Shown in pieces: positions 7,327 to 26,778 of a stretch of DNA of 64,000 nucleotides. The stretch's first letter is position 1. The number at the start of each line of letters is the position of its first letter. Made by a program: the position numbers and the translations under genes. The notes beneath the pieces were generated by a model that worked only from the letters and a program-made list of their open reading frames with translations, did no database searches and had not been told where the DNA came from. This stretch comes from a virus. Location: the IMG/VR virus record IMGVR_UViG_3300030104_006433, positions 1 through 64,000 of that record; one strand, 5' to 3'.

Positions 7327-7402
7327 CACGTTTTGCTTGGCTTTTGGCTTAAAGGATGTTATATTTAGGTATAAGAAAGTTAAGAAAAATAATAAAGGTT
7401 AT
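7318..7402 (+). promoter_or_regulatory. Early promoter+leader cassette
   Basis: CTTGGC-N18-TATATTTA-GGTATAAGAAAGTTAAGAAA...AAAGGTTAT-ATG. Confidence 0.8.
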
Positions 7403-7831
7403 ATGAAAAAACAAATACCAAACAATTATTTAGATGCAATTAAAGTTACAATTGTGACTAAAGAAAATAAAACATTTACAAAACCAATAACAACATGGGT
7501 TACTGATAAAAGTATATCTATTGGTAATTTAAAAAATTATCTTAATCATCCAAGTGTTATTGATTTTGAATTAACATTTCCAAAACCAATTAATAAAAAT
7601 GGAAATGGATCATCTTCAACAAGTGGTAAAAAGTCCAAAAAACAAAATAAAGACATTCCATTTGAAATAATGTCAGATCTAATTGATGTTGCTCATTCTA
7701 AAGGTGTGGGGTGTAATAAAGAAAAAATATCAAGATTTAATCAATTTCTTGATTTTGATTTACATAAAGCTTTAGATTATAAATATGGATTTACAGGAGC
7801 TTCAAAATTACATACAATATTTAAAATATGA
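7403..7831 (+). CDS. Hypothetical early protein (start moved from 7271 to 7403)
   Basis: In-frame ATG at the end of the cassette. Confidence 0.7.
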   Translation: MKKQIPNNYLDAIKVTIVTKENKTFTKPITTWVTDKSISIGNLKNYLNHPSVIDFELTFPKPINKNGNGSSSTSGKKSKKQNKDIPFEIMSDLIDVAHSKGVGCNKEKISRFNQFLDFDLHKALDYKYGFTGASKLHTIFKI

Positions 7832-9086: not shown

Positions 9087-9159
9087 ATGTTTGGCTTTTG
9101 GCTAAATGGATGTTATATTTACGAGGTAAGTAAGTTAAGAAATATATAAAATAAAGGTT
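9087..9159 (+). promoter_or_regulatory. Early promoter+leader cassette
   Basis: ATGTTTGGC...GATGTTATATTTACGAGGTAAGTAAGTTAAGAAATATATAAAATAAAGGTT-ATG. Confidence 0.85.
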
Positions 9160-9492
9160 ATGAAAAAAAGTAATAAATTAGTAAAACAAGTAAGTAGAGA
9201 AATAATAGCAGCAGGTGTTAATCTTGAAATGGATTATGAATTTGGTGATGTAGGTGGTGAAAGAGGTATTATAGAGAAAGATTATGCTTATGTAGGTTCA
9301 GGTAGATACAATGGTATAGAAGGATTTTATTTCAAAAGAGGTGACGATCAATGTTTTGATAATAAAGAGGAAAAAACAATTACAGAGATATTAAATAAAA
9401 ATGGATTCGAAGTTGATCATTTTTCACCATGGGAAATGGAATGGGATAGAGATAGATCATTTAGAGCTAGTGTTGGATTTTTTAAAAAATAG
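9160..9492 (+). CDS. Hypothetical early protein
   Basis: First gene after the cassette. Confidence 0.75.
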   Translation: MKKSNKLVKQVSREIIAAGVNLEMDYEFGDVGGERGIIEKDYAYVGSGRYNGIEGFYFKRGDDQCFDNKEEKTITEILNKNGFEVDHFSPWEMEWDRDRSFRASVGFFKK

Positions 9493-12844: not shown

Positions 12845-12932
12845 AACCTTTGTACGTAAATATTTGGCTTCTGGTTAAATTGATGTTATATTTATGAGGT
12901 AAGAAAGTTAAGAAATATATAAAATAAAGGTT
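12845..12932 (+). promoter_or_regulatory. Early promoter+leader cassette
   Basis: AACCTTTGTACGTAAATATTTGGC...GATGTTATATTTATGAGGTAAGAAAGTTAAGAAATATATAAAATAAAGGTT-ATG. Confidence 0.85.
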
Positions 12933-13079
12933 ATGAATAGAGTAGAATTATTAGATAAATTAGAAGAGTTAAGTATTGAATATCAAATGGCATTAGATTG
13001 GGGAAAAATCCAACATTTATCTGTGGATGGGCTTAAGAATGTTTTAGATATGGTGGAGAGAATTTATAAATTAAGATAA
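12933..13079 (+). CDS. 48-aa early protein (not in the ORF track)
   Basis: MNRVELLDKLEELSIEYQ... begins at the cassette ATG. Confidence 0.65.
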   Translation: MNRVELLDKLEELSIEYQMALDWGKIQHLSVDGLKNVLDMVERIYKLR

Positions 13080-14377: not shown

Positions 14378-14465
14378 AACCTTTGCACGTAAATGTTTGG
14401 CTACTGGGGATATTGATGTTATATTTACGAGGTAAGTAAGTTAAGAAATATATAAAATAAAGGTT
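14378..14465 (+). promoter_or_regulatory. Early promoter+leader cassette
   Basis: From GATGTTATATTTACG to the ATG it is identical to the 9087 copy. Confidence 0.85.
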
Positions 14466-14654
14466 ATGTTAAGCAGAGAAAATATAGAAAAGTTAAGTTT
14501 TAGTTGGAGTAGTAAATCTCAATATGATTGGGAATTAAGTTGTAATTTAAATTCAGATAATCCAGTTATCACATGGGATGAATATATTGAAGCAAATGAT
14601 AGACATGCTTCATTTGAGATTGCGTTTGAGAAATTAGGTGTTAAATTTATATAA
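14466..14654 (+). CDS. Hypothetical early protein
   Basis: First gene after the cassette. Confidence 0.7.
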   Translation: MLSRENIEKLSFSWSSKSQYDWELSCNLNSDNPVITWDEYIEANDRHASFEIAFEKLGVKFI

Positions 14655-15541: not shown

Positions 15542-15622
15542 CTGTGGATATGCTTGGCTTCTGGCTAAATTGACGTTATATTTATGATGTAAGTAAGTTA
15601 AGAAAAACGTTAAATTAAGGTT
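15534..15622 (+). promoter_or_regulatory. Early promoter+leader cassette
   Basis: CTTGGC...GTTATATTTATGATGTAAGTAAGTTAAGAAA...AAGGTT-ATG. Confidence 0.85.
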
Positions 15623-15988
15623 ATGAATAAATTTAGTATTAAAAATCAGGAAGAAAAAGTTGAATGTTTAATGTGGATCTCAGATCTATATAAAGACGTT
15701 TATGGTTTTAGACCAAGAGGTTATAATTTTGAAGCATGGTCATTTCAAGAATTAACTGATTTTGTTAATGACTTATCTGAGGAGAGTGAAAAAGAAGCTG
15801 AGTATGAGAGACAAATGGAGGAAAAAGCAATTAAAGATGTTATGTCTTTAGGTTGTAATAAAGAAACAGCTTTAAGATGGTTAGATCAAGCAGATGCTTA
15901 TTTTATTTATGGTGATGATGAGTTTTATCAAGATAGTATTGATAAGTATGGTTGGGTGGTTAAACACTTTGATAACACTTGTGTGTAA
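15623..15988 (+). CDS. Conserved-looking phage protein
   Basis: ISDLYKDVYGFRPR motif, recurrent in phage early proteins. Confidence 0.7.
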   Translation: MNKFSIKNQEEKVECLMWISDLYKDVYGFRPRGYNFEAWSFQELTDFVNDLSEESEKEAEYERQMEEKAIKDVMSLGCNKETALRWLDQADAYFIYGDDEFYQDSIDKYGWVVKHFDNTCV

Positions 15989-16069
15989 GTGTTTGGCCTC
16001 CAGGTAAATGGATGTTATATTTACGAGGTAAGTAAGTTAAGAAATACGTAAAAATTAAAAATTAAGGTT
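15974..16069 (+). promoter_or_regulatory. Early promoter+leader cassette
   Basis: TTTGGC...GATGTTATATTTACGAGGTAAGTAAGTTAAGAAA...AAGGTT-ATG. Confidence 0.85.
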
Positions 16070-16834
16070 ATGTTAAAAGAAAATGTTAAAATAGTTAAGA
16101 GATGGAAGCCAGAATTGGTTAAGATGAATGATATTAAATTCGATAAGAATTTATTCAAACCAATGAAAACAGGTAAAAAAGTGGATTCACTTTTAAGTAG
16201 TGAAGGTGGGTTAATGAAAGGTACAAATTTTGCTTTTGTTGGAGATCCAGGAGTTGGTAAAAGTACTGTTATGTTAGATATTTTATCTGATCTACAAAAG
16301 AAAAAACAAAAAGTATTATTCATCTCAGGTGAGATGACAAGCATTGATATGTTTGGTTATGTTAAAAGATTTCCTAAATTTGGTAAATTACCTATTTTGT
16401 TTATGGGTGATTACATAGAAAAAGATCCAATGGTTGTATTAACTAGTGTTTTGAGTGAAGGATTTGATGTTGTGTTAATAGATAGTATGGCTGAAGTTTG
16501 TACTAATATTGTTGATTACCATGGAGGTACTATGAAAAATGCTGAAACTAAAGTATTGAACTTATTAGAGAAGCATAACAAAGCTGAAAATTTAAATAAA
16601 ACAAATACCACGTTTTTAATAATTCAACAAGTTACTAAAGGTGGTGAATTTGCAGGATCAAATAGATTTAAACATATGTTAACTGGAATGGGTCATATGA
16701 AATTTACTGAAGGAAGTAGAGTATTATTTTTCAGTAAAAATAGAAGAGGTGGCCAAATGGATAAATTACATTTTAGTTTAGATCAAAAGAATCACGTTGG
16801 TTGGTTATTCACAGAAGCAATGAACGGAGAGTAA
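16070..16834 (+). CDS. RecA-superfamily ATPase, RadA/Sms-like (no Zn finger or Lon-like domain)
   Basis: Walker A GDPGVGKST, LFISGE, Walker B VLIDS, QVTKGGEFAGS...HM, KNR. Confidence 0.8.
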   Translation: MLKENVKIVKRWKPELVKMNDIKFDKNLFKPMKTGKKVDSLLSSEGGLMKGTNFAFVGDPGVGKSTVMLDILSDLQKKKQKVLFISGEMTSIDMFGYVKRFPKFGKLPILFMGDYIEKDPMVVLTSVLSEGFDVVLIDSMAEVCTNIVDYHGGTMKNAETKVLNLLEKHNKAENLNKTNTTFLIIQQVTKGGEFAGSNRFKHMLTGMGHMKFTEGSRVLFFSKNRRGGQMDKLHFSLDQKNHVGWLFTEAMNGE

Positions 16835-16907: not shown

Positions 16908-16996
16908 ACCTTTGTACACAAATGTTTGGCTACCGGTTAAATGGATGTTATATTTATGAGGTAAGAAAGTTAAGAAACACAATAAAAATTAAGGTT
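16908..16996 (+). promoter_or_regulatory. Early promoter+leader cassette
   Basis: ACCTTTGTACACAAATGTTTGGC...GATGTTATATTTATGAGGTAAGAAAGTTAAGAAA...AAGGTT-ATG. Confidence 0.85.
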
Positions 16997-17404
16997 ATGA
17001 AAAAAGTAGAAATTAAAAAAGCAGTAAAGATAGTTCAGGATGAATTAACTAAGTATGGTTTAATGACACCAGGTAATGGTATTGATTTTAAAGTTTCAAT
17101 TATGGTGGAACAAATTGAGAATGATAGAGGTAGAGTGGTTCCACATTTAGTAGCTAAGTGGAATGAAACAGCTAGTATGATTAATGAGACTAAAGATGGT
17201 TTTACATATGGTATATTAGAGAGAGAAAGTTTTGGTGAATTAAATAGATATTTTTGTGCTGAATTATTCGTTAAAGGTATTACTCAAAGAGCAGCATGGA
17301 TTAAAGCTGATCATAAAGATTGTGTTGAGTATTTAAAATCAGAACCATTTGGCCACCCAGCACTGTTTCCAGTGTGGAAAGAGAGTCAAAAAGTAAGTGC
17401 GTAA
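16997..17404 (+). CDS. Hypothetical early protein (start moved from 16922)
   Basis: In-frame ATG at the cassette end. Confidence 0.7.
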   Translation: MKKVEIKKAVKIVQDELTKYGLMTPGNGIDFKVSIMVEQIENDRGRVVPHLVAKWNETASMINETKDGFTYGILERESFGELNRYFCAELFVKGITQRAAWIKADHKDCVEYLKSEPFGHPALFPVWKESQKVSA

Positions 17405-17484
17405 ATGTTTGGCTACCAGGGATATTGATGTTATATTTAGGTATAAGTAAGTTAAGAAATACGTTAAATTAAAAAATAAAGGTT
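17404..17484 (+). promoter_or_regulatory. Early promoter+leader cassette
   Basis: ATGTTTGGC...GATGTTATATTTAGGTATAAGTAAGTTAAGAAA...AAAGGTT-ATG. Confidence 0.85.
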
Positions 17485-18255
17485 ATGTTAAAATTAGAAA
17501 AATTAAATAATAAAGTTGTAGAATTAGATAATAAGATTTGGTCAATAAGGGTTGAAAATGAAAATTCAACTTCAACTGTTTTAAAAAATTCATATTTTCC
17601 ATTTATTGATGAAGTTAAATTTGCTGGTGAAGATTATATTTACTTGAATAATAAAGATGGTAAAGAAATTTGCACATTATCACTTAGAAAAAAACATTGG
17701 AATGATGTTAATTTTAACTATATGGAGATTGGTTATTATTCAACTAGAGTTAGTACTAATGATTCATTCGAAATGGATAGATTAATTACATTAGGAAAAA
17801 TAACAGAAATTGTAAAAACAAATTCCGAGTCAATATTATTTGATATTCATAATTTAAGAAAAGAAAATAGTAAAGAAATAAGTAAATTAAGTAAAGAAAA
17901 GTATTCATTAGAAAAAGAAATAAATACCTTAAACAAAGAAATAAAAGACAAAGCAAAAGAAGAAAATTTAAAAACTCTGTTTAACGGTGTTAATATAGAG
18001 CCTACATATATACAGGTTAGAAGTAATACTCATGTTAGTAATGTTAAGAATATTAAATTCAAAAAATGGACTAATGATACTAAAAGATCACTTACAATTG
18101 AGTTCACATGTGATCACAATATCTATAATTTTGAGGAAGAAAAATATAATACTACAACTAGAGTTTTTGAGTATGATAAAGTGAGACTTGATAATGTAAG
18201 ACATTTCATTTGTGATTTGAATGAGTTTTTACCTAAAGTAAAAGAATTAGTATAA
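17485..18255 (+). CDS. Hypothetical coiled-coil early protein
   Basis: 256-aa ORF after the cassette. Confidence 0.75.
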   Translation: MLKLEKLNNKVVELDNKIWSIRVENENSTSTVLKNSYFPFIDEVKFAGEDYIYLNNKDGKEICTLSLRKKHWNDVNFNYMEIGYYSTRVSTNDSFEMDRLITLGKITEIVKTNSESILFDIHNLRKENSKEISKLSKEKYSLEKEINTLNKEIKDKAKEENLKTLFNGVNIEPTYIQVRSNTHVSNVKNIKFKKWTNDTKRSLTIEFTCDHNIYNFEEEKYNTTTRVFEYDKVRLDNVRHFICDLNEFLPKVKELV

Positions 18256-18562: not shown

Positions 18563-18631
18563 AAAATGAGCCGAGAAACAAATATTCCAGCGACGAGGAA
18601 GAAAACGTATACGGTGAAGAAGTATAATATG

Positions 18632-18668
18632 CTTGGTGGTATTAAACCACTTGGGGGTATTAAACCCC
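18632..18668. repeat. Tandem 18-bp repeat forming twin hairpins
   Basis: GTGGT-ATTAA-ACCAC and GGGGT-ATTAA-ACCCC. Confidence 0.75.
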
Positions 18669-18850
18669 TGAATAAAACAATGGGTGGGAAACTAAATAAG
18701 TAGGTGATAAACAAATGGAGTTAAATGGAGTGGTGTGATGGTATGTGGAAAACATATAGGGTGTGGGTGGAATGAGATGTGGCTAATGTTAGCCCATTTA
18801 TGGCGCAAGCCAAACATTTTTAGTGTAAAATAAATTATATACCTAATTGG

Positions 18851-18901
18851 ACACCCCCCGCGGTAATAGTTTGGCCTCCACGTTGATTTTCATTATATTT
18901 A
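18851..18901 (+). promoter_or_regulatory. Host-sigma-type promoter without the leader block
   Basis: TTTGGC at 18870 and TATATTTA at 18894 (same 24-nt offset as the cassettes). Confidence 0.7.
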
Positions 18902-18923
18902 ACCGATGTTAAAATCACGAGAT

Positions 18924-19004
18924 ATGGAAATATTAATTGGTATAGCTATAGTTGTTTTATTCTCTGGAATATTCATATACGGCTATTTAACATATAAAGA
19001 ATAA
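18924..19004 (+). CDS. 26-aa single-TM microprotein
   Basis: MEILIGIAIVVLFSGIFIYGYLTYKE directly after the promoter. Confidence 0.5.
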   Translation: MEILIGIAIVVLFSGIFIYGYLTYKE

Positions 19005-19032
19005 AAAGATTAATAATATAAAACGAGGTATT

Positions 19033-19145
19033 GATCATAGGGCCCACCTAGTGTAGTACGGCGCCATGAAACAATAGTACACCAACACTATAGACACCTA
19101 TGTCATAACCAGTTATAAGCTCCCAAATGTGGGATAAGGGAGTTT
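19033..19145 (+). ncRNA. Candidate structured RNA / leader of the 19164 gene
   Basis: Nested helices CATAGG/CCTATG, TAGTGT/ACACTA, GTAC/GTAC; alternative TCCCA/TGGGA vs CTCCC/GGGAG. Confidence 0.4.
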
Positions 19146-19163
19146 CATTTTAATAAAAGTTAT

Positions 19164-19517
19164 ATGGAAGAAAAAATAAAAACAACAAAACGTAAAGGAA
19201 GAAAAAAAGGATCAACAACCCGATATTGCCTCATTCAGGATGAAATGTTAGGTAAATATGAAATACATGTTGATGAATCTAATCATTGTTTTATATTAGT
19301 AGATAAAGAAACTGGTTCAACTGAGGGATATTATACTTCATTACCATATGCTTTAAAACGTGTGTTGAAAGATAAGTATGTTCCTGGAGGTAAGAATGGA
19401 GAAACGTATACGTTACAAGAATATATCACACAAATGAATAAACTAGGTAATGCAATGGCAAAACTATTAGTGCCTGCACATTGGCAATTCAAACCTGGTT
19501 TAGATAAACACAACTAA
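19164..19517 (+). CDS. Hypothetical protein with basic AT-hook-like N-terminus
   Basis: KRKGRKKGS. Confidence 0.65.
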   Translation: MEEKIKTTKRKGRKKGSTTRYCLIQDEMLGKYEIHVDESNHCFILVDKETGSTEGYYTSLPYALKRVLKDKYVPGGKNGETYTLQEYITQMNKLGNAMAKLLVPAHWQFKPGLDKHN

Positions 19518-20340
19518 TACACGGTAATCACACACATAGCTGTGGTTATAACCACTAACATGTTACGTGTGGTATGTTATTGTATAGTTAAAGTTGTATA
19601 CTAGTATTAGTGGCCCCGTATTACTATATTAAATTAGGGGGTGGCTATTACTCTGTACTTAGTAAATTATGTTAGATAACGTATCCCAACTATATTGTGT
19701 ATAATGTTGTAACCATAAAATAATATTGTGAATCGCGTATTACAACTATATTGTGTAGCTATAGTATCGCCAACATAATGTTGTGCGTACGTACGTGTAT
19801 AGTACTTAATACATAATACCCATGTATACTGATATCCATCGATACTAGTATATTACGGGAAAGAAAGTAAATGTATTTTTAGTTCGAAAACGATCCTTAC
19901 ACATCGATGCATATATACAAATATATACAATTTGCCATTTTAACCCACAGGTATAAAATCCAAAGAATCCGAAATTCTTCTTTTTATAAATCTTTAGGTA
20001 TCGAATAAGGTATATACTATGTATTGATATGGATGTGGATTTAATATTGGAACTTCAAATAATATGTTTAACATATGGTATGTGGATGTTATTCAAATTC
20101 CATAACAGGAGAGATGAAAAATAGAGCCAAGCTTCATCCTATATTATATATTCCAGTGTAAAACAATGTGGTAAAACCAATTGAGATTAAACCAATTACA
20201 ACGCTACCAATATACATCCAGAGTATTCCATATTATTCTTCCTACCCATTTAATTTACCTAGGTTGGAAACAATGGTCTCTATACTAAGGTATGTAAATA
20301 ATTGCTGTATATACGTATCTCTATATTGAGGTATGTAAAG
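19518..20340. repeat. Palindrome- and direct-repeat-dense non-coding island (possible origin, genome end or packaging/injection signal)
   Basis: GTGGTTATAACCAC, TAACATGTTA, ATACTAGTAT x2, CGTACGTACG, CAACTATATTGTGTA x2, TCTCTATAyTrAGGTATGTAAA x2. Confidence 0.7.
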
Positions 20341-20362
20341 AGAGTTACTTTTTTGAGTGTTT

Positions 20363-20403
20363 GCTTGGCTTTTGGATTTTTCTTCATTATATTTATATAA
20401 AAA
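20363..20403 (+). promoter_or_regulatory. Host-sigma-type promoter
   Basis: CTTGGC at 20364, TATATTTA at 20388. Confidence 0.7.
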
Positions 20404-20598
20404 ATGAAGGTTATGATAATATATCTCACAATTGGAATAGTGTTAATGTTTTTAATTGAATTTTCTAATCATGTTAATAAGGAAAAATTAGAATATTTAG
20501 GTGAAGAAGCATCAAAATTTAATATGTTCGAAAGAGTGATTGGTATTCTTATTTGGCCTGTTATTATATTTTTAGCAATTAGAAATTATTTAAAATAA
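20404..20598 (+). CDS. Small two-TM membrane protein
   Basis: Two hydrophobic helices; alternative start at 20413 (AAGGTT-ATG). Confidence 0.65.
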   Translation: MKVMIIYLTIGIVLMFLIEFSNHVNKEKLEYLGEEASKFNMFERVIGILIWPVIIFLAIRNYLK

Positions 20599-25873: not shown

Positions 25874-25971
25874 AACCCTTCCTGTACAGGTGCTTGGCTC
25901 CCGTAAAGGAGGATGTTATATTTATATCATAAGAAAATTAAGAAATAGTATAAATTAAAAAAATAAAAGTT
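25874..25971 (+). promoter_or_regulatory. Early promoter cassette, divergent copy
   Basis: CTTGGC...GATGTTATATTTATATCATAAGAAAATTAAGAAA...AAAAGTT-ATG. Confidence 0.75.
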
Positions 25972-26778
25972 ATGTTAGATTTTGAAAAAGGTGAATATTT
26001 AAATGAAAAAGAATTAAGAGAAGTATGCCCAGTTATTTTTGCAGAGAAAGCATCAGCAGAAGTATCAAAACATTACACTCATATTCCAACTAGTAAAGTT
26101 ATAAATGATATGGCAACATTAGGTTGGAAAGTTGTTGATGCTAAAGCTGTTAAAGCTAGAAAAAATAGTACAAAAGGTTATCAAAAACATTTAGTAGTAT
26201 TTAGAAATCCAGATGTTGTTATTAATGGTAAAGATGGAGACACAGTTTTTCCACAAGTATTATTAACAAATAGTCATGATGGTAAAAATGCATTTACTTT
26301 CACTGCTGGTTTATTTAGAATGATTTGTGAAAATGGGTTAGTAGTTTCAGACACACAATTTGAAGATGTTAAAATGAGACATATGGGTTATTCATTTGAA
26401 GAATTACAAGTTAAAATTAAAGATATGGTTGAAAAATTACCATTAACTGTTGAATCAATGAATAAAATGCAAGAAACTGAATTAAATGAAGAAAAAGCAG
26501 TTGAGTTTGCTAAAAAAGCTTTAACAACTCGTTTTAATGAAAAAGAAATGAAAAGAATTAAAATTGATATTAAAGATATTTTAACACCAGTTAGAATTGA
26601 AGATAATGGAAAAGATTTATGGTCAATATTTAATGTTGTTCAAGAAAAAGTAATTGATGGGGATTTTAATTATATTGCCGGTGGTAAAACTAGAAAAGCA
26701 AGACAGATTAAAAATTTCAAACAAGATCAAAAAGTTAATAAAGAATTATTTGAATTAGCTTTAGAATATGTAGCTTAA
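25972..26778 (+). CDS. DUF932 (DUF945) family protein
   Basis: Y.HIPT, KH.V.FR, NSHDG, GLFRMICENGL, LWSIFNVVQE. Confidence 0.85.
   Translation: MLDFEKGEYLNEKELREVCPVIFAEKASAEVSKHYTHIPTSKVINDMATLGWKVVDAKAVKARKNSTKGYQKHLVVFRNPDVVINGKDGDTVFPQVLLTNSHDGKNAFTFTAGLFRMICENGLVVSDTQFEDVKMRHMGYSFEELQVKIKDMVEKLPLTVESMNKMQETELNEEKAVEFAKKALTTRFNEKEMKRIKIDIKDILTPVRIEDNGKDLWSIFNVVQEKVIDGDFNYIAGGKTRKARQIKNFKQDQKVNKELFELALEYVA

Follow-up and report, generated by a model that had tools for sequence, protein, structure and literature searches.

The non-coding island at 19518-20340 was shown to be a composite conserved control region and not one cluster of palindromes. Its upstream two thirds (19518-19985) form a recurring unit, in which a domain of alternating purines and pyrimidines (140-400 bp among the phages compared) precedes a conserved core. 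The sequence-only reading had proposed looking for conservation in relatives, and both the core and the alternating composition were indeed found in at least 12 phage lineages. Judged from these comparisons, the core unit is an uncatalogued, recurrent phage element, and a literature search found no paper describing it. The element is probably a cis-acting site that acts in the context of transcription and binds a protein, because a physical property of the DNA is conserved, the boxes and their spacing are fixed, the core is present in a single copy and a fixed orientation, and the gene that usually neighbours it encodes a protein of a DNA-binding type. Of the roles that we considered, the most likely single one is that of a nucleoprotein site or a replication origin coupled to transcription, with a probability of roughly 0.3.

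Layout of a composite non-coding control region

The window, that is the whole stretch of 64,000 nucleotides analysed here, represents the first 64 kb of an IMG/VR record of 160,544 bp, which is 99% complete and contains no end repeats. The GC content is about 29% genome-wide, the ORFs lie mostly on the + strand and transcription runs almost entirely in one direction. No tRNAs were found. One of the proteins, of the baseplate wedge, shares 45% identity with its counterpart in the 160-kb myovirus Flavobacterium phage vB_FspM_immuto, and among the other proteins of the window there are matches to T4-type baseplate PHROGs and to an ATP-dependent ligase. Because of these matches the host is probably a member of the marine Bacteroidota, and the baseplate genes indicate a phage of the contractile-tail type. 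The large terminase gene is found at 72.4 kb, that of a DnaB-like helicase at 119.7 kb and that of DNA polymerase B at 133.7 kb.

Promoters of the class TTGGC-N17/18-TTATATTTA were predicted throughout the genome, and nearly all pattern matches directly precede ORFs. In a genome-wide scan, the pattern TTGG[CA]-N16-20-TAn[AT]TTT[AG] matched 26 times on the + strand, compared to 3 times on the - strand. A subclass with a common 60-nt leader makes up repeated cassettes at 7.3-17.4, 25.9, 130 and 155-157 kb. Canonical TAnnTTTG promoters were not enriched ahead of genes; the TTGGC-N17/18-TTATATTTA variant appears to be used instead. The last cassette-driven small genes lie upstream of the island and the tail and baseplate genes downstream of it. 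This agrees with the sequence-only reading, which saw a non-coding, repeat-bearing island with a function at the end of an early region; the island terminates a block of small genes with repeated promoter cassettes. The same reading had called it the largest gene-poor stretch, and 19518-20403 is the longest gap in the genome without an ATG-started + strand ORF of at least 50 aa. The 601 bp ahead of the neighbouring gene (18563-19163) are among the next-largest ORF-free gaps.

We split the island into parts by comparison with about 30 related contigs. Upstream of it, a host-type promoter on the + strand (TTGGCC-N17-TTATATTTA, 18871..18901) was predicted from its motif, and this is the probable source of the transcripts that enter the island. 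It is followed by a 32-codon ORF (18906-19004) and by the + strand gene for a basic protein of 117 aa (19164..19517). The alternating non-coding domain then extends over 19518..19818 and holds the direct repeat 19680/19736 as well as copies of a TATTGTG/ATGTTG motif. The conserved core, delimited on the + strand by an nhmmer model, occupies 19819..19918 and belongs to a longer conserved stretch, block A (about 19820-20016), with a hairpin and a T-run at its end. At 19911..19930, TRF detected a tandem ATATATACAA x2. On the - strand this segment reads TATATTTG, a candidate Bacteroidota -7-type box, with a TAnnTTTG match at 19925; the sequence TATATAC(A/C)(A/T)ATAT is kept in most lineages.

The hairpin (AAGAAT/ATTCTT followed by CTTTTT, 19963..19985, + strand) is a candidate intrinsic terminator. 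It has a 6-bp stem with one G-C pair and a stability of only -4.6 kcal/mol, and a consensus terminator scan gave no match. In three clades the stem changes are complementary (AGAAT/ATTCT, AGAT/ATCT and AGGT/ACCT), each time followed by a T-run, whereas the hairpin was not seen in distant lineages. We regard it as a weak candidate for the terminator of the upstream transcription unit.

Downstream of block A lies a variable slot, which in this genome contains a 31-codon ORF on the + strand (MDVDLILELQIICLTYGMW..., 20029..20124). A 32-aa ORF in L004 is 83% identical to it over 23 aa, while in L002 it differs by a single, synonymous change; we have low confidence that it represents a real gene. 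In three relatives (L022, L024 and L025) the slot has received insertions of 0.4-1 kb with small MKKSELRQ-type genes. The second conserved non-coding block, block B, spans 20123..20362 and is bordered by GAGCCAAGC (20124) and GCTTGGCT (20363). It holds CTACCCATTTAATTTACCTAGG, GTATATACGTATCTCTATA and the 22-nt direct repeat 20277/20318, and it is 66-79% identical among relatives, with invariant stretches. RNAalifold gave only -18.5 kcal/mol for the + strand of block B and -12.5 kcal/mol for its - strand, and no ORF with a start codon is conserved in it.

Several coding candidates in the region were rejected. In L002, a membrane-like minus-strand ORF of 27 aa (20134-20217) lacks the ATG and has acquired a stop upstream, and the minus-strand MKKNPKAK ORF has lost its ATG in L015, L004 and L025. 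A minus-strand frame in block B is open in all six relatives (6/6), but it has no start codon. Furthermore, the 'gene' of 122 aa that was called across the core in L003 results from spurious read-through.

The region ends with a second predicted host-type promoter on the + strand (TTGGCT-N17-TTATATTTA, 20365..20395), which would serve the downstream membrane-protein gene. It closely resembles a copy at 79244, is conserved in relatives and has the features of a Bacteroidota sigma-A-type promoter, namely a -33 TTG and a -7 TAnnTTTG-like box about 19-21 nt apart that recur before genes. The membrane-protein gene starts at 20404 or 20413; ATG 20404 is lost in L002, while the in-frame ATG 20413 is kept. 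The promoter at the 3′ end, the composite make-up of the island, the alternation and the conservation across many phages had all been missed when the sequence was first read.

Purine-pyrimidine alternation and palindromes

The sequence-only reading had centred on palindromes and repeats, all of which are present where it had placed them. These are GTGGTTATAACCAC (19542-55), TAACATGTTA (19556-65), ATACTAGTAT (19598 and 19842), CAACATAATGTTG (19771-83), CGTACGTACG (19786-95), a run of 6-bp sites (19801-19912), GTATATAC (20010 and 20307), CCTAGG (20258) and the direct repeat CAACTATATTGTGTA (19687 and 19743). In addition, there are two 22-nt direct-repeat pairs, 19680/19736 and 20277/20318, each with 2 mismatches. 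Both pairs exceed chance, as none of 200 dinucleotide-preserving shuffles (0/200) gave a pair as good.

With 33-34 6-bp palindromes per 823 bp, compared to a genome mean of 15.6 (sd 4.5), the island is the genome maximum. However, most of the excess is lost against a dinucleotide-matched background: shuffles that preserve dinucleotides contained 26.7 +/- 5.3 palindromes versus 33 observed (z 1.2). The sole outlier was 19770-19930, a sub-stretch picked after the fact, with 15 palindromes versus 6.5 (z 3.3). GC-containing palindromes numbered 21, compared to 5.7 expected from their genome frequency (3.7-fold), whereas AT-only palindromes were not enriched in the island (13 versus 11.1 expected).

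What underlies the palindromes is the arrangement of purines and pyrimidines. Between 19518 and 19930, 67% of the steps alternate between the two, compared to 45.8 +/- 3.5% genome-wide (z 6.1), which is the genome extreme, and the longest alternating run of the genome, TGTGCGTACGTACGTGTATA, lies at 19782-19801. Over the same stretch the + strand purine fraction is 0.50 instead of the usual 0.57, and the purine excess is thus lost. Alternation is the primary anomaly and the palindromes are a by-product of this composition, because palindromic hexamers are by nature frequent in a sequence that alternates and is symmetric between the strands. This side effect can produce a high palindrome density elsewhere and calls for caution with other genomes.

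No other repetitive structure stood out. Inverted repeats showed no excess over shuffles (p 0.36-0.94), and the copy number of any motif in the island reached at most 3-5 (p 0.1-0.7 versus dinucleotide shuffles). To call the repeats 'iteron-like' was therefore too strong, since no single motif has a copy number above that of the shuffles. A helical periodicity of 10-11 bp or one of 24 bp is absent from the island, in which only a 5.5-bp signal of A/T versus G/C was detected. When searching the genome for iteron arrays elsewhere with TRF, only repeats inside coding regions were found.

The 3.7-fold enrichment of GC-containing palindromes could be taken to mean that the island draws off restriction enzymes or nucleoid proteins of the host, as a decoy or sink. 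This had been proposed together with the view that phages usually avoid 6-bp palindromes. Such avoidance does exist genome-wide, but it is only mild (observed/expected 0.92). Moreover, the conserved boxes are few (GATATC, two ATCGAT and GTATATAC) and stand at a fixed spacing, while the other sites differ between clades. A functionless leftover can be ruled out because the exact spacing and the conservation extend across lineages with 35-50% protein identity. We regard a decoy or a leftover as highly improbable.

Conserved core and neighbouring 117-aa protein

The core contains CCATGTAyrCTGATATCCATCGAT (box 1, 19837), then a run of purines, ATGTATTTTTAG-TCGAAAAC, a run of pyrimidines, CATCGATG (box 2, 19902) and TATATAC. 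Across lineages the core reads GCTGATATCCATCGAT, purine run, ATGTATTTTTAG-TCGAAAAC, pyrimidine run, CATCGA(T), TATATAC. The purine and pyrimidine runs between the CATCGAT boxes can pair. In all loci that match the search pattern at both box 1 and box 2, the two lie exactly 65 bp apart. The nhmmer core model found one copy in the genome (19819-19918), and all related loci match it with E values of 1e-9 to 1e-24. In addition, a pattern scan of IMG/VR gave five more contigs with the core. Two matches of the pattern in cellular genomes (L043 and L044) were discarded as chance matches within coding sequence.

Directly upstream of the element, a gene of the 117-aa family is found in 10 of the 13 lineages. 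In six distant lineages this adjacent gene is 51-58% identical to that of the window at the DNA level and 35-50% at the protein level. The identity of the core to the window is 61-70% in five distant lineages and 52% in L034, and in most of the distant lineages the core is kept as well as or better than the adjacent gene. These distant members (35-50% identity) come from marine and several other metagenomes, and in them, too, the gene is followed by a gap of about 200-440 bp with a copy of the core. The alternation in this gap is 0.61-0.67, compared to 0.47-0.56 in the contigs overall or outside the gap. Taken over all related lineages, alternation reaches 0.57-0.69 at the homologous place, even in parts that cannot be aligned. 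That composition is kept where sequence is not suggests that a physical property of the DNA is under selection.

Among cultured phages, no DNA or protein matches were found for the island, the 117-aa protein or P0020. Flavobacterium phage immuto, the closest cultured relative, lacks the gene as well as an alternating island in its syntenic stretch at 55-78 kb, and the core model found no copy in it.

The orientation of the core is always that of the gene, and it is co-directional with transcription from the upstream promoter. The family gene is not directly upstream of the element in three lineages (L038, L041 and L042). In L038, a promoter cassette is located about 170 nt ahead of the element, and a mini-ORF of 14 codons is all that separates them. 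As no protein gene intervenes, it is the transcription into the element that is conserved.

This arrangement would also suit an element that acts as RNA, either as a 3′ UTR-derived small RNA ending at the hairpin and T-run or in cis on RNA polymerase as an antitermination site of the nut/put type of lambdoid phages, which would control read-through into the genes downstream. We rank this second after the origin and consider it rather doubtful. The core is located in the predicted 3′ UTR of the mRNA of the 117-aa gene or on a short dedicated transcript, always co-directional, and at the downstream end of a cassette-driven block in a genome read in one direction; the L038 cassette likewise leads into it over no more than a mini-ORF. 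A hairpin and T-run follow the core in three clades, with compensatory changes in the stem, and in L027. Furthermore, the segment from box 1 to box 2 tends to form a hairpin closed by the boxes, which in L022 needs a G-U pair of the + strand. However, no Rfam match was obtained at the gathering threshold or at E 5, and the consensus fold amounted to -7.6 to -10 kcal/mol over 335 columns for the island and to 0 for the core. The MFE z-scores of 19518-19998 were only -1.45 and -1.27, and the box 1-box 2 segment of the window itself had a z of -0.27. The terminator-like hairpin is very weak and absent from distant lineages, and there is no obvious RNA rationale for conserved alternation or for palindromic boxes at a fixed spacing.

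If the element binds a protein, as we think probable, the product of the adjacent gene is a candidate partner, judging by its sequence and genomic position. The 117-aa protein has an N-terminal KRKGRKKG arm, followed in the AlphaFold2 model (pLDDT 77) by four beta strands and two helices. A profile search with it yielded 57 representative clusters, most of them of 85-127 aa. The motif [KR]GR occurs in 44 of 48 aligned family members and the AT-hook-type core GRP in 12 of the 48; the window protein has GRK. The arm looks AT-hook-like. Pfam returned no AT_hook match and no Pfam family for any family member. Searches for a solved structural relative (Foldseek against the PDB, VIA-align wide and profile against the PDB) gave no convincing match.

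Some weak matches may link the family with replication. All ten close members (10/10) weakly match phrog_154, a 'replication initiation protein', with E values of about 2e-4 to 6e-4, and weak matches in BFVD were to DUF5405 proteins and to the phiKT 'replication initiation protein' (E 0.04). In one distant lineage, from which the element is absent, the family gene lies between DNA polymerase B and GroES/GroEL with a clamp-loader-like ATPase.

A bound protein, possibly the 117-aa protein, might instead block or time the passage of RNA polymerase from the upstream genes to the modules downstream, or repress transcription upstream, so that the element would be a transcription boundary at the DNA level with no role in replication. 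A location that separates the last cassette-driven genes from those for tail and baseplate fits such a boundary, as do the terminator-like hairpin, the next promoter and a small basic protein of DNA-binding type encoded alongside. However, the unit stays with the upstream gene when 0.4-1 kb have been inserted before the promoter block in relatives, and in L034 the module precedes nucleotide and NAD salvage genes and not structural genes. For a Q-like mechanism, a + strand promoter is lacking in 19518-20362. In addition, 'early' and 'late' timing of genes in this phage are themselves inferences. We therefore rank a boundary of this kind third and regard it as unlikely.

Possible roles and known systems

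Returning to the transcription-coupled origin, a protein complex would assemble on the 19518-19985 unit with the 117-aa protein as partner. The fixed boxes would nucleate binding, and the flexible alternating DNA would be bent or wrapped. Such an origin might be activated by transcription running into it, as at T4 oriF and oriG or at oriE with RepEB.

An origin or nucleoprotein site is consistent with the largest + strand ORF-free gap of the genome and with an alternation that is both the genome extreme and conserved as composition. It also agrees with a core that is single-copy, well conserved, fixed in orientation and exact in its 65-bp spacing. The adjacency of gene and element in 10/13 lineages, the N-terminal [KR]GR(P)xG motif, the weak phrog_154 and phiKT matches and the family gene next to DNA polymerase B in one lineage point the same way. 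In 9 of 10 lineages the fold of the box 1-box 2 segment is more stable than those of shuffles (mean z -1.2), two direct-repeat pairs are beyond chance, L038 has a promoter cassette upstream of the element, and T4 origins are likewise without a common motif. On the other hand, the family gene is missing from the position directly upstream of the element in three lineages, and two lineages have the gene but not the element. The helicase and polymerase genes are about 100 kb away, the replication links of the protein are weak (E of about 1e-4 or annotation only, with no solved relative), and a fixed orientation fits a function at the RNA level equally well.

We also searched the island for hallmarks of classical origins. 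With at most one mismatch a single DnaA box was found, and with at most two mismatches there were 8 compared to 4.5 expected, with no cluster or pairs. No array of three or more evenly spaced motif copies was present, as only the two 2-copy repeats are beyond chance. In the nearest-neighbour profile the least stable 100 bp of the island rank only in the top 5.7% of the genome, and the GC content of the island is 30.7%, slightly above that of the genome. Cumulative GC and AT skew both rise monotonically across 160 kb and do not turn at the island; this test is weak, because nearly all genes are on one strand and transcription dominates the skew. The island may be the replication origin that had been suggested from the sequence, but it has no cluster of DnaA boxes and no stretch of low stability, and the replication genes are 100 kb away.

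We further considered whether the island marks a genome end, a terminal-repeat boundary, a pac site or a T5-like injection stop, the last three of which had been put forward before. In favour of this, the T5 region is also large, conserved, untranslated and rich in repeats and palindromes, and it ends a pre-early block (10.1101/866236). The starts or stops of many metagenomic contigs fall close to the module, and one contig (L037) ends in adapter sequence 117 bp after box 2. However, contig ends within the island are scattered and not at one base, and G000 and several long contigs read straight through. The contig starts upstream are assembly breaks, because they lie inside the repeated promoter-leader cassettes, and a terminus signal was not detected. 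End repeats are absent from the record, the terminase gene lies at 72.4 kb and the paired DnaA boxes that define the T5 region are missing. Cassette promoters occur on both sides of the ends of the record, and as they are also found at 130 and 155-157 kb, the small-gene block is not a bounded first-entry segment in the assembly. The phage has a contractile-tail baseplate, and to our knowledge T5-like siphoviruses are the only phages with two-step injection. We found no support for a terminal-repeat boundary or pac site, and we judge any terminus or injection stop very unlikely. The sequence-only reading had stated that it would be contradicted by a palindrome density not above background together with a lack of skew or terminus signals, and this is largely what we observed.

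A more far-reaching version of the replication-origin proposal can be put forward tentatively. The element may represent a new class of cis-elements read by DNA shape through an AT-hook-like protein family, which would act as an origin of lytic replication or as a master early/late switch and would be widespread in marine and freshwater phages of the Bacteroidota type. We know of no mapped replication origins or control sites in marine Bacteroidota phages. The present analysis defines an element that can be searched for: a core of 100 bp, its two CATCGAT boxes at a distance of 65 bp, and a flank that is conserved in composition and not in sequence. As a candidate protein partner is named, the hypothesis is directly testable. 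If conservation at the level of composition reflects recognition of shape or flexibility, the element would provide a clear case from nature of indirect read-out in the control region of a phage.

Among known systems, the T5 injection-stop region corresponds to untranslated repeat region 3, which lies within a terminal repeat of 10 kb, about 8% in from the left end of the genome, with eight paired DnaA boxes that sit in conserved inverted repeats (10.1101/866236). In contrast, DnaA boxes are not enriched in the island, no terminal repeat is known and the tail is contractile. The Q/pR'/qut/tR' and nut/put systems of lambda resemble the island, with its putative regulator gene and candidate terminator, in the succession of a small regulator gene, a conserved non-coding segment, a terminator and a long co-directional late block. 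However, the island has no + strand promoter between gene and hairpin and its RNA structure is weak, and the 117-aa protein has no detectable similarity to lambda Q or N.

Protein p6 of phi29, of about 100 aa, is thought to recognise bendable DNA over strict sequence and to organise origin DNA; the phi29 origins are found at protein-primed genome ends. The island resembles the p6 sites in that a physical property, alternation with many flexible pyrimidine-purine steps, is conserved over sequence. It differs in having no periodicity of 10-11 or 24 bp, and the likeness to p6 is not one of demonstrated homology.

The origins of T4 have no common motif and depend on promoter-derived R-loops (oriF and oriG) or, at oriE, on direct repeats and RepEB (PMC3016281). 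Like the island, they are non-coding or partly coding sites near transcription-unit boundaries in a large lytic myovirus. They use either a transcript from an upstream promoter or, in the case of oriE, direct repeats and a small phage protein, and the island resembles oriE in that its small neighbour protein weakly matches the PHROG 'replication initiation protein'. In contrast to T4, the island has no stretch that melts easily and no evenly spaced repeat array, and its alternation and 65-bp boxes have no T4 counterpart. The likeness to the T4 origins is one of logic and not of demonstrated homology of sequence or protein.

Periodicity of the alternating domain

We analysed the distribution of A/T versus G/C content along the purine-pyrimidine alternating domain and found a periodicity of 5.5 bp at 19518-19935 in the window, as well as in the homologous domains of the related loci L029, L034, L036, L037 and L022. 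Across 10 lineages, the spectral power of this signal averages 3.5 times white noise. The power in the window is 7.0 versus a genome maximum of 7.09, so that the two values are nearly equal. In the same analysis, no periodicity of 10-11 bp was seen in the alternating domains. In one clade, GGCGGGCGGCGGGCG stands in place of the alternating CGTACGTACG run (L022, 1395-1420; L005, 960-990; homologous to ~19784-19800 in the window). Judged from its four G-tracts and 1-nt loops, GGCGGGCGGCGGGCG could in principle form a G-quadruplex.

Promoter cassettes ahead of small genes

A cassette of ~100 nt, consisting of the promoter TTGGCT-N17-GTTATATTTA, a common leader (GAGGTAAGTAAGTTAAGAAATA...) and AAGGTTATG, recurs ahead of small genes. 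Copies are located in the window at 7337-7420, 9091-9200, 12864-12955, 14397-14500, 15554-15650, 15993-16100, 16926-17030, 17409-17515 and 25894-25985, and in the whole record (G000) at 130304, 155654 and 156667. In metagenomic assemblies of related phages, breaks fall within these cassettes. Directly 3′ of the 18871 promoter, a 32-codon ORF (MLKSRDMEILIGIAIVVLFSGIFIYGYLTYKE) is found at 18906-19004, which may encode a small membrane peptide.

A distant family member and a contig end

A distant member of the 117-aa family, the small basic proteins with an AT-hook-like N-terminus, occurs in Tara and other marine contigs (L030, L031 and L032). Here, its gene belongs to a cluster of overlapping genes, between those for DNA polymerase B and a 251-aa protein and those for GroES, GroEL and a clamp-loader-like ATPase, and this cluster lacks any non-coding element. 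The contig L037 terminates in the Illumina adapter sequence AGATCGGAAGAGCACACGT (915-934), 117 bp past box 2 of the element. This single case could be either an untrimmed read or a genuine DNA end. Elsewhere, G000 contains a run of 10 N at 78976-78985.

Comparison with phage immuto

The closest cultured relative, Flavobacterium phage vB_FspM_immuto (L026, MW353176.1), harbours a 540-bp gap without genes at 66231-66767, with about nine copies of (A/G)ACCCGT spaced roughly 11 bp apart and another cluster at the far end. The gap looks like a true iteron array, to which G000 has no counterpart. vB_FspM_immuto is named 13 times in 'Four additional natural 7-deazaguanine derivatives in phages and how to make them' (PMC10516641), and for this reason its DNA may carry 7-deazaguanine-type modifications. 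Such modification could affect restriction-site statistics.
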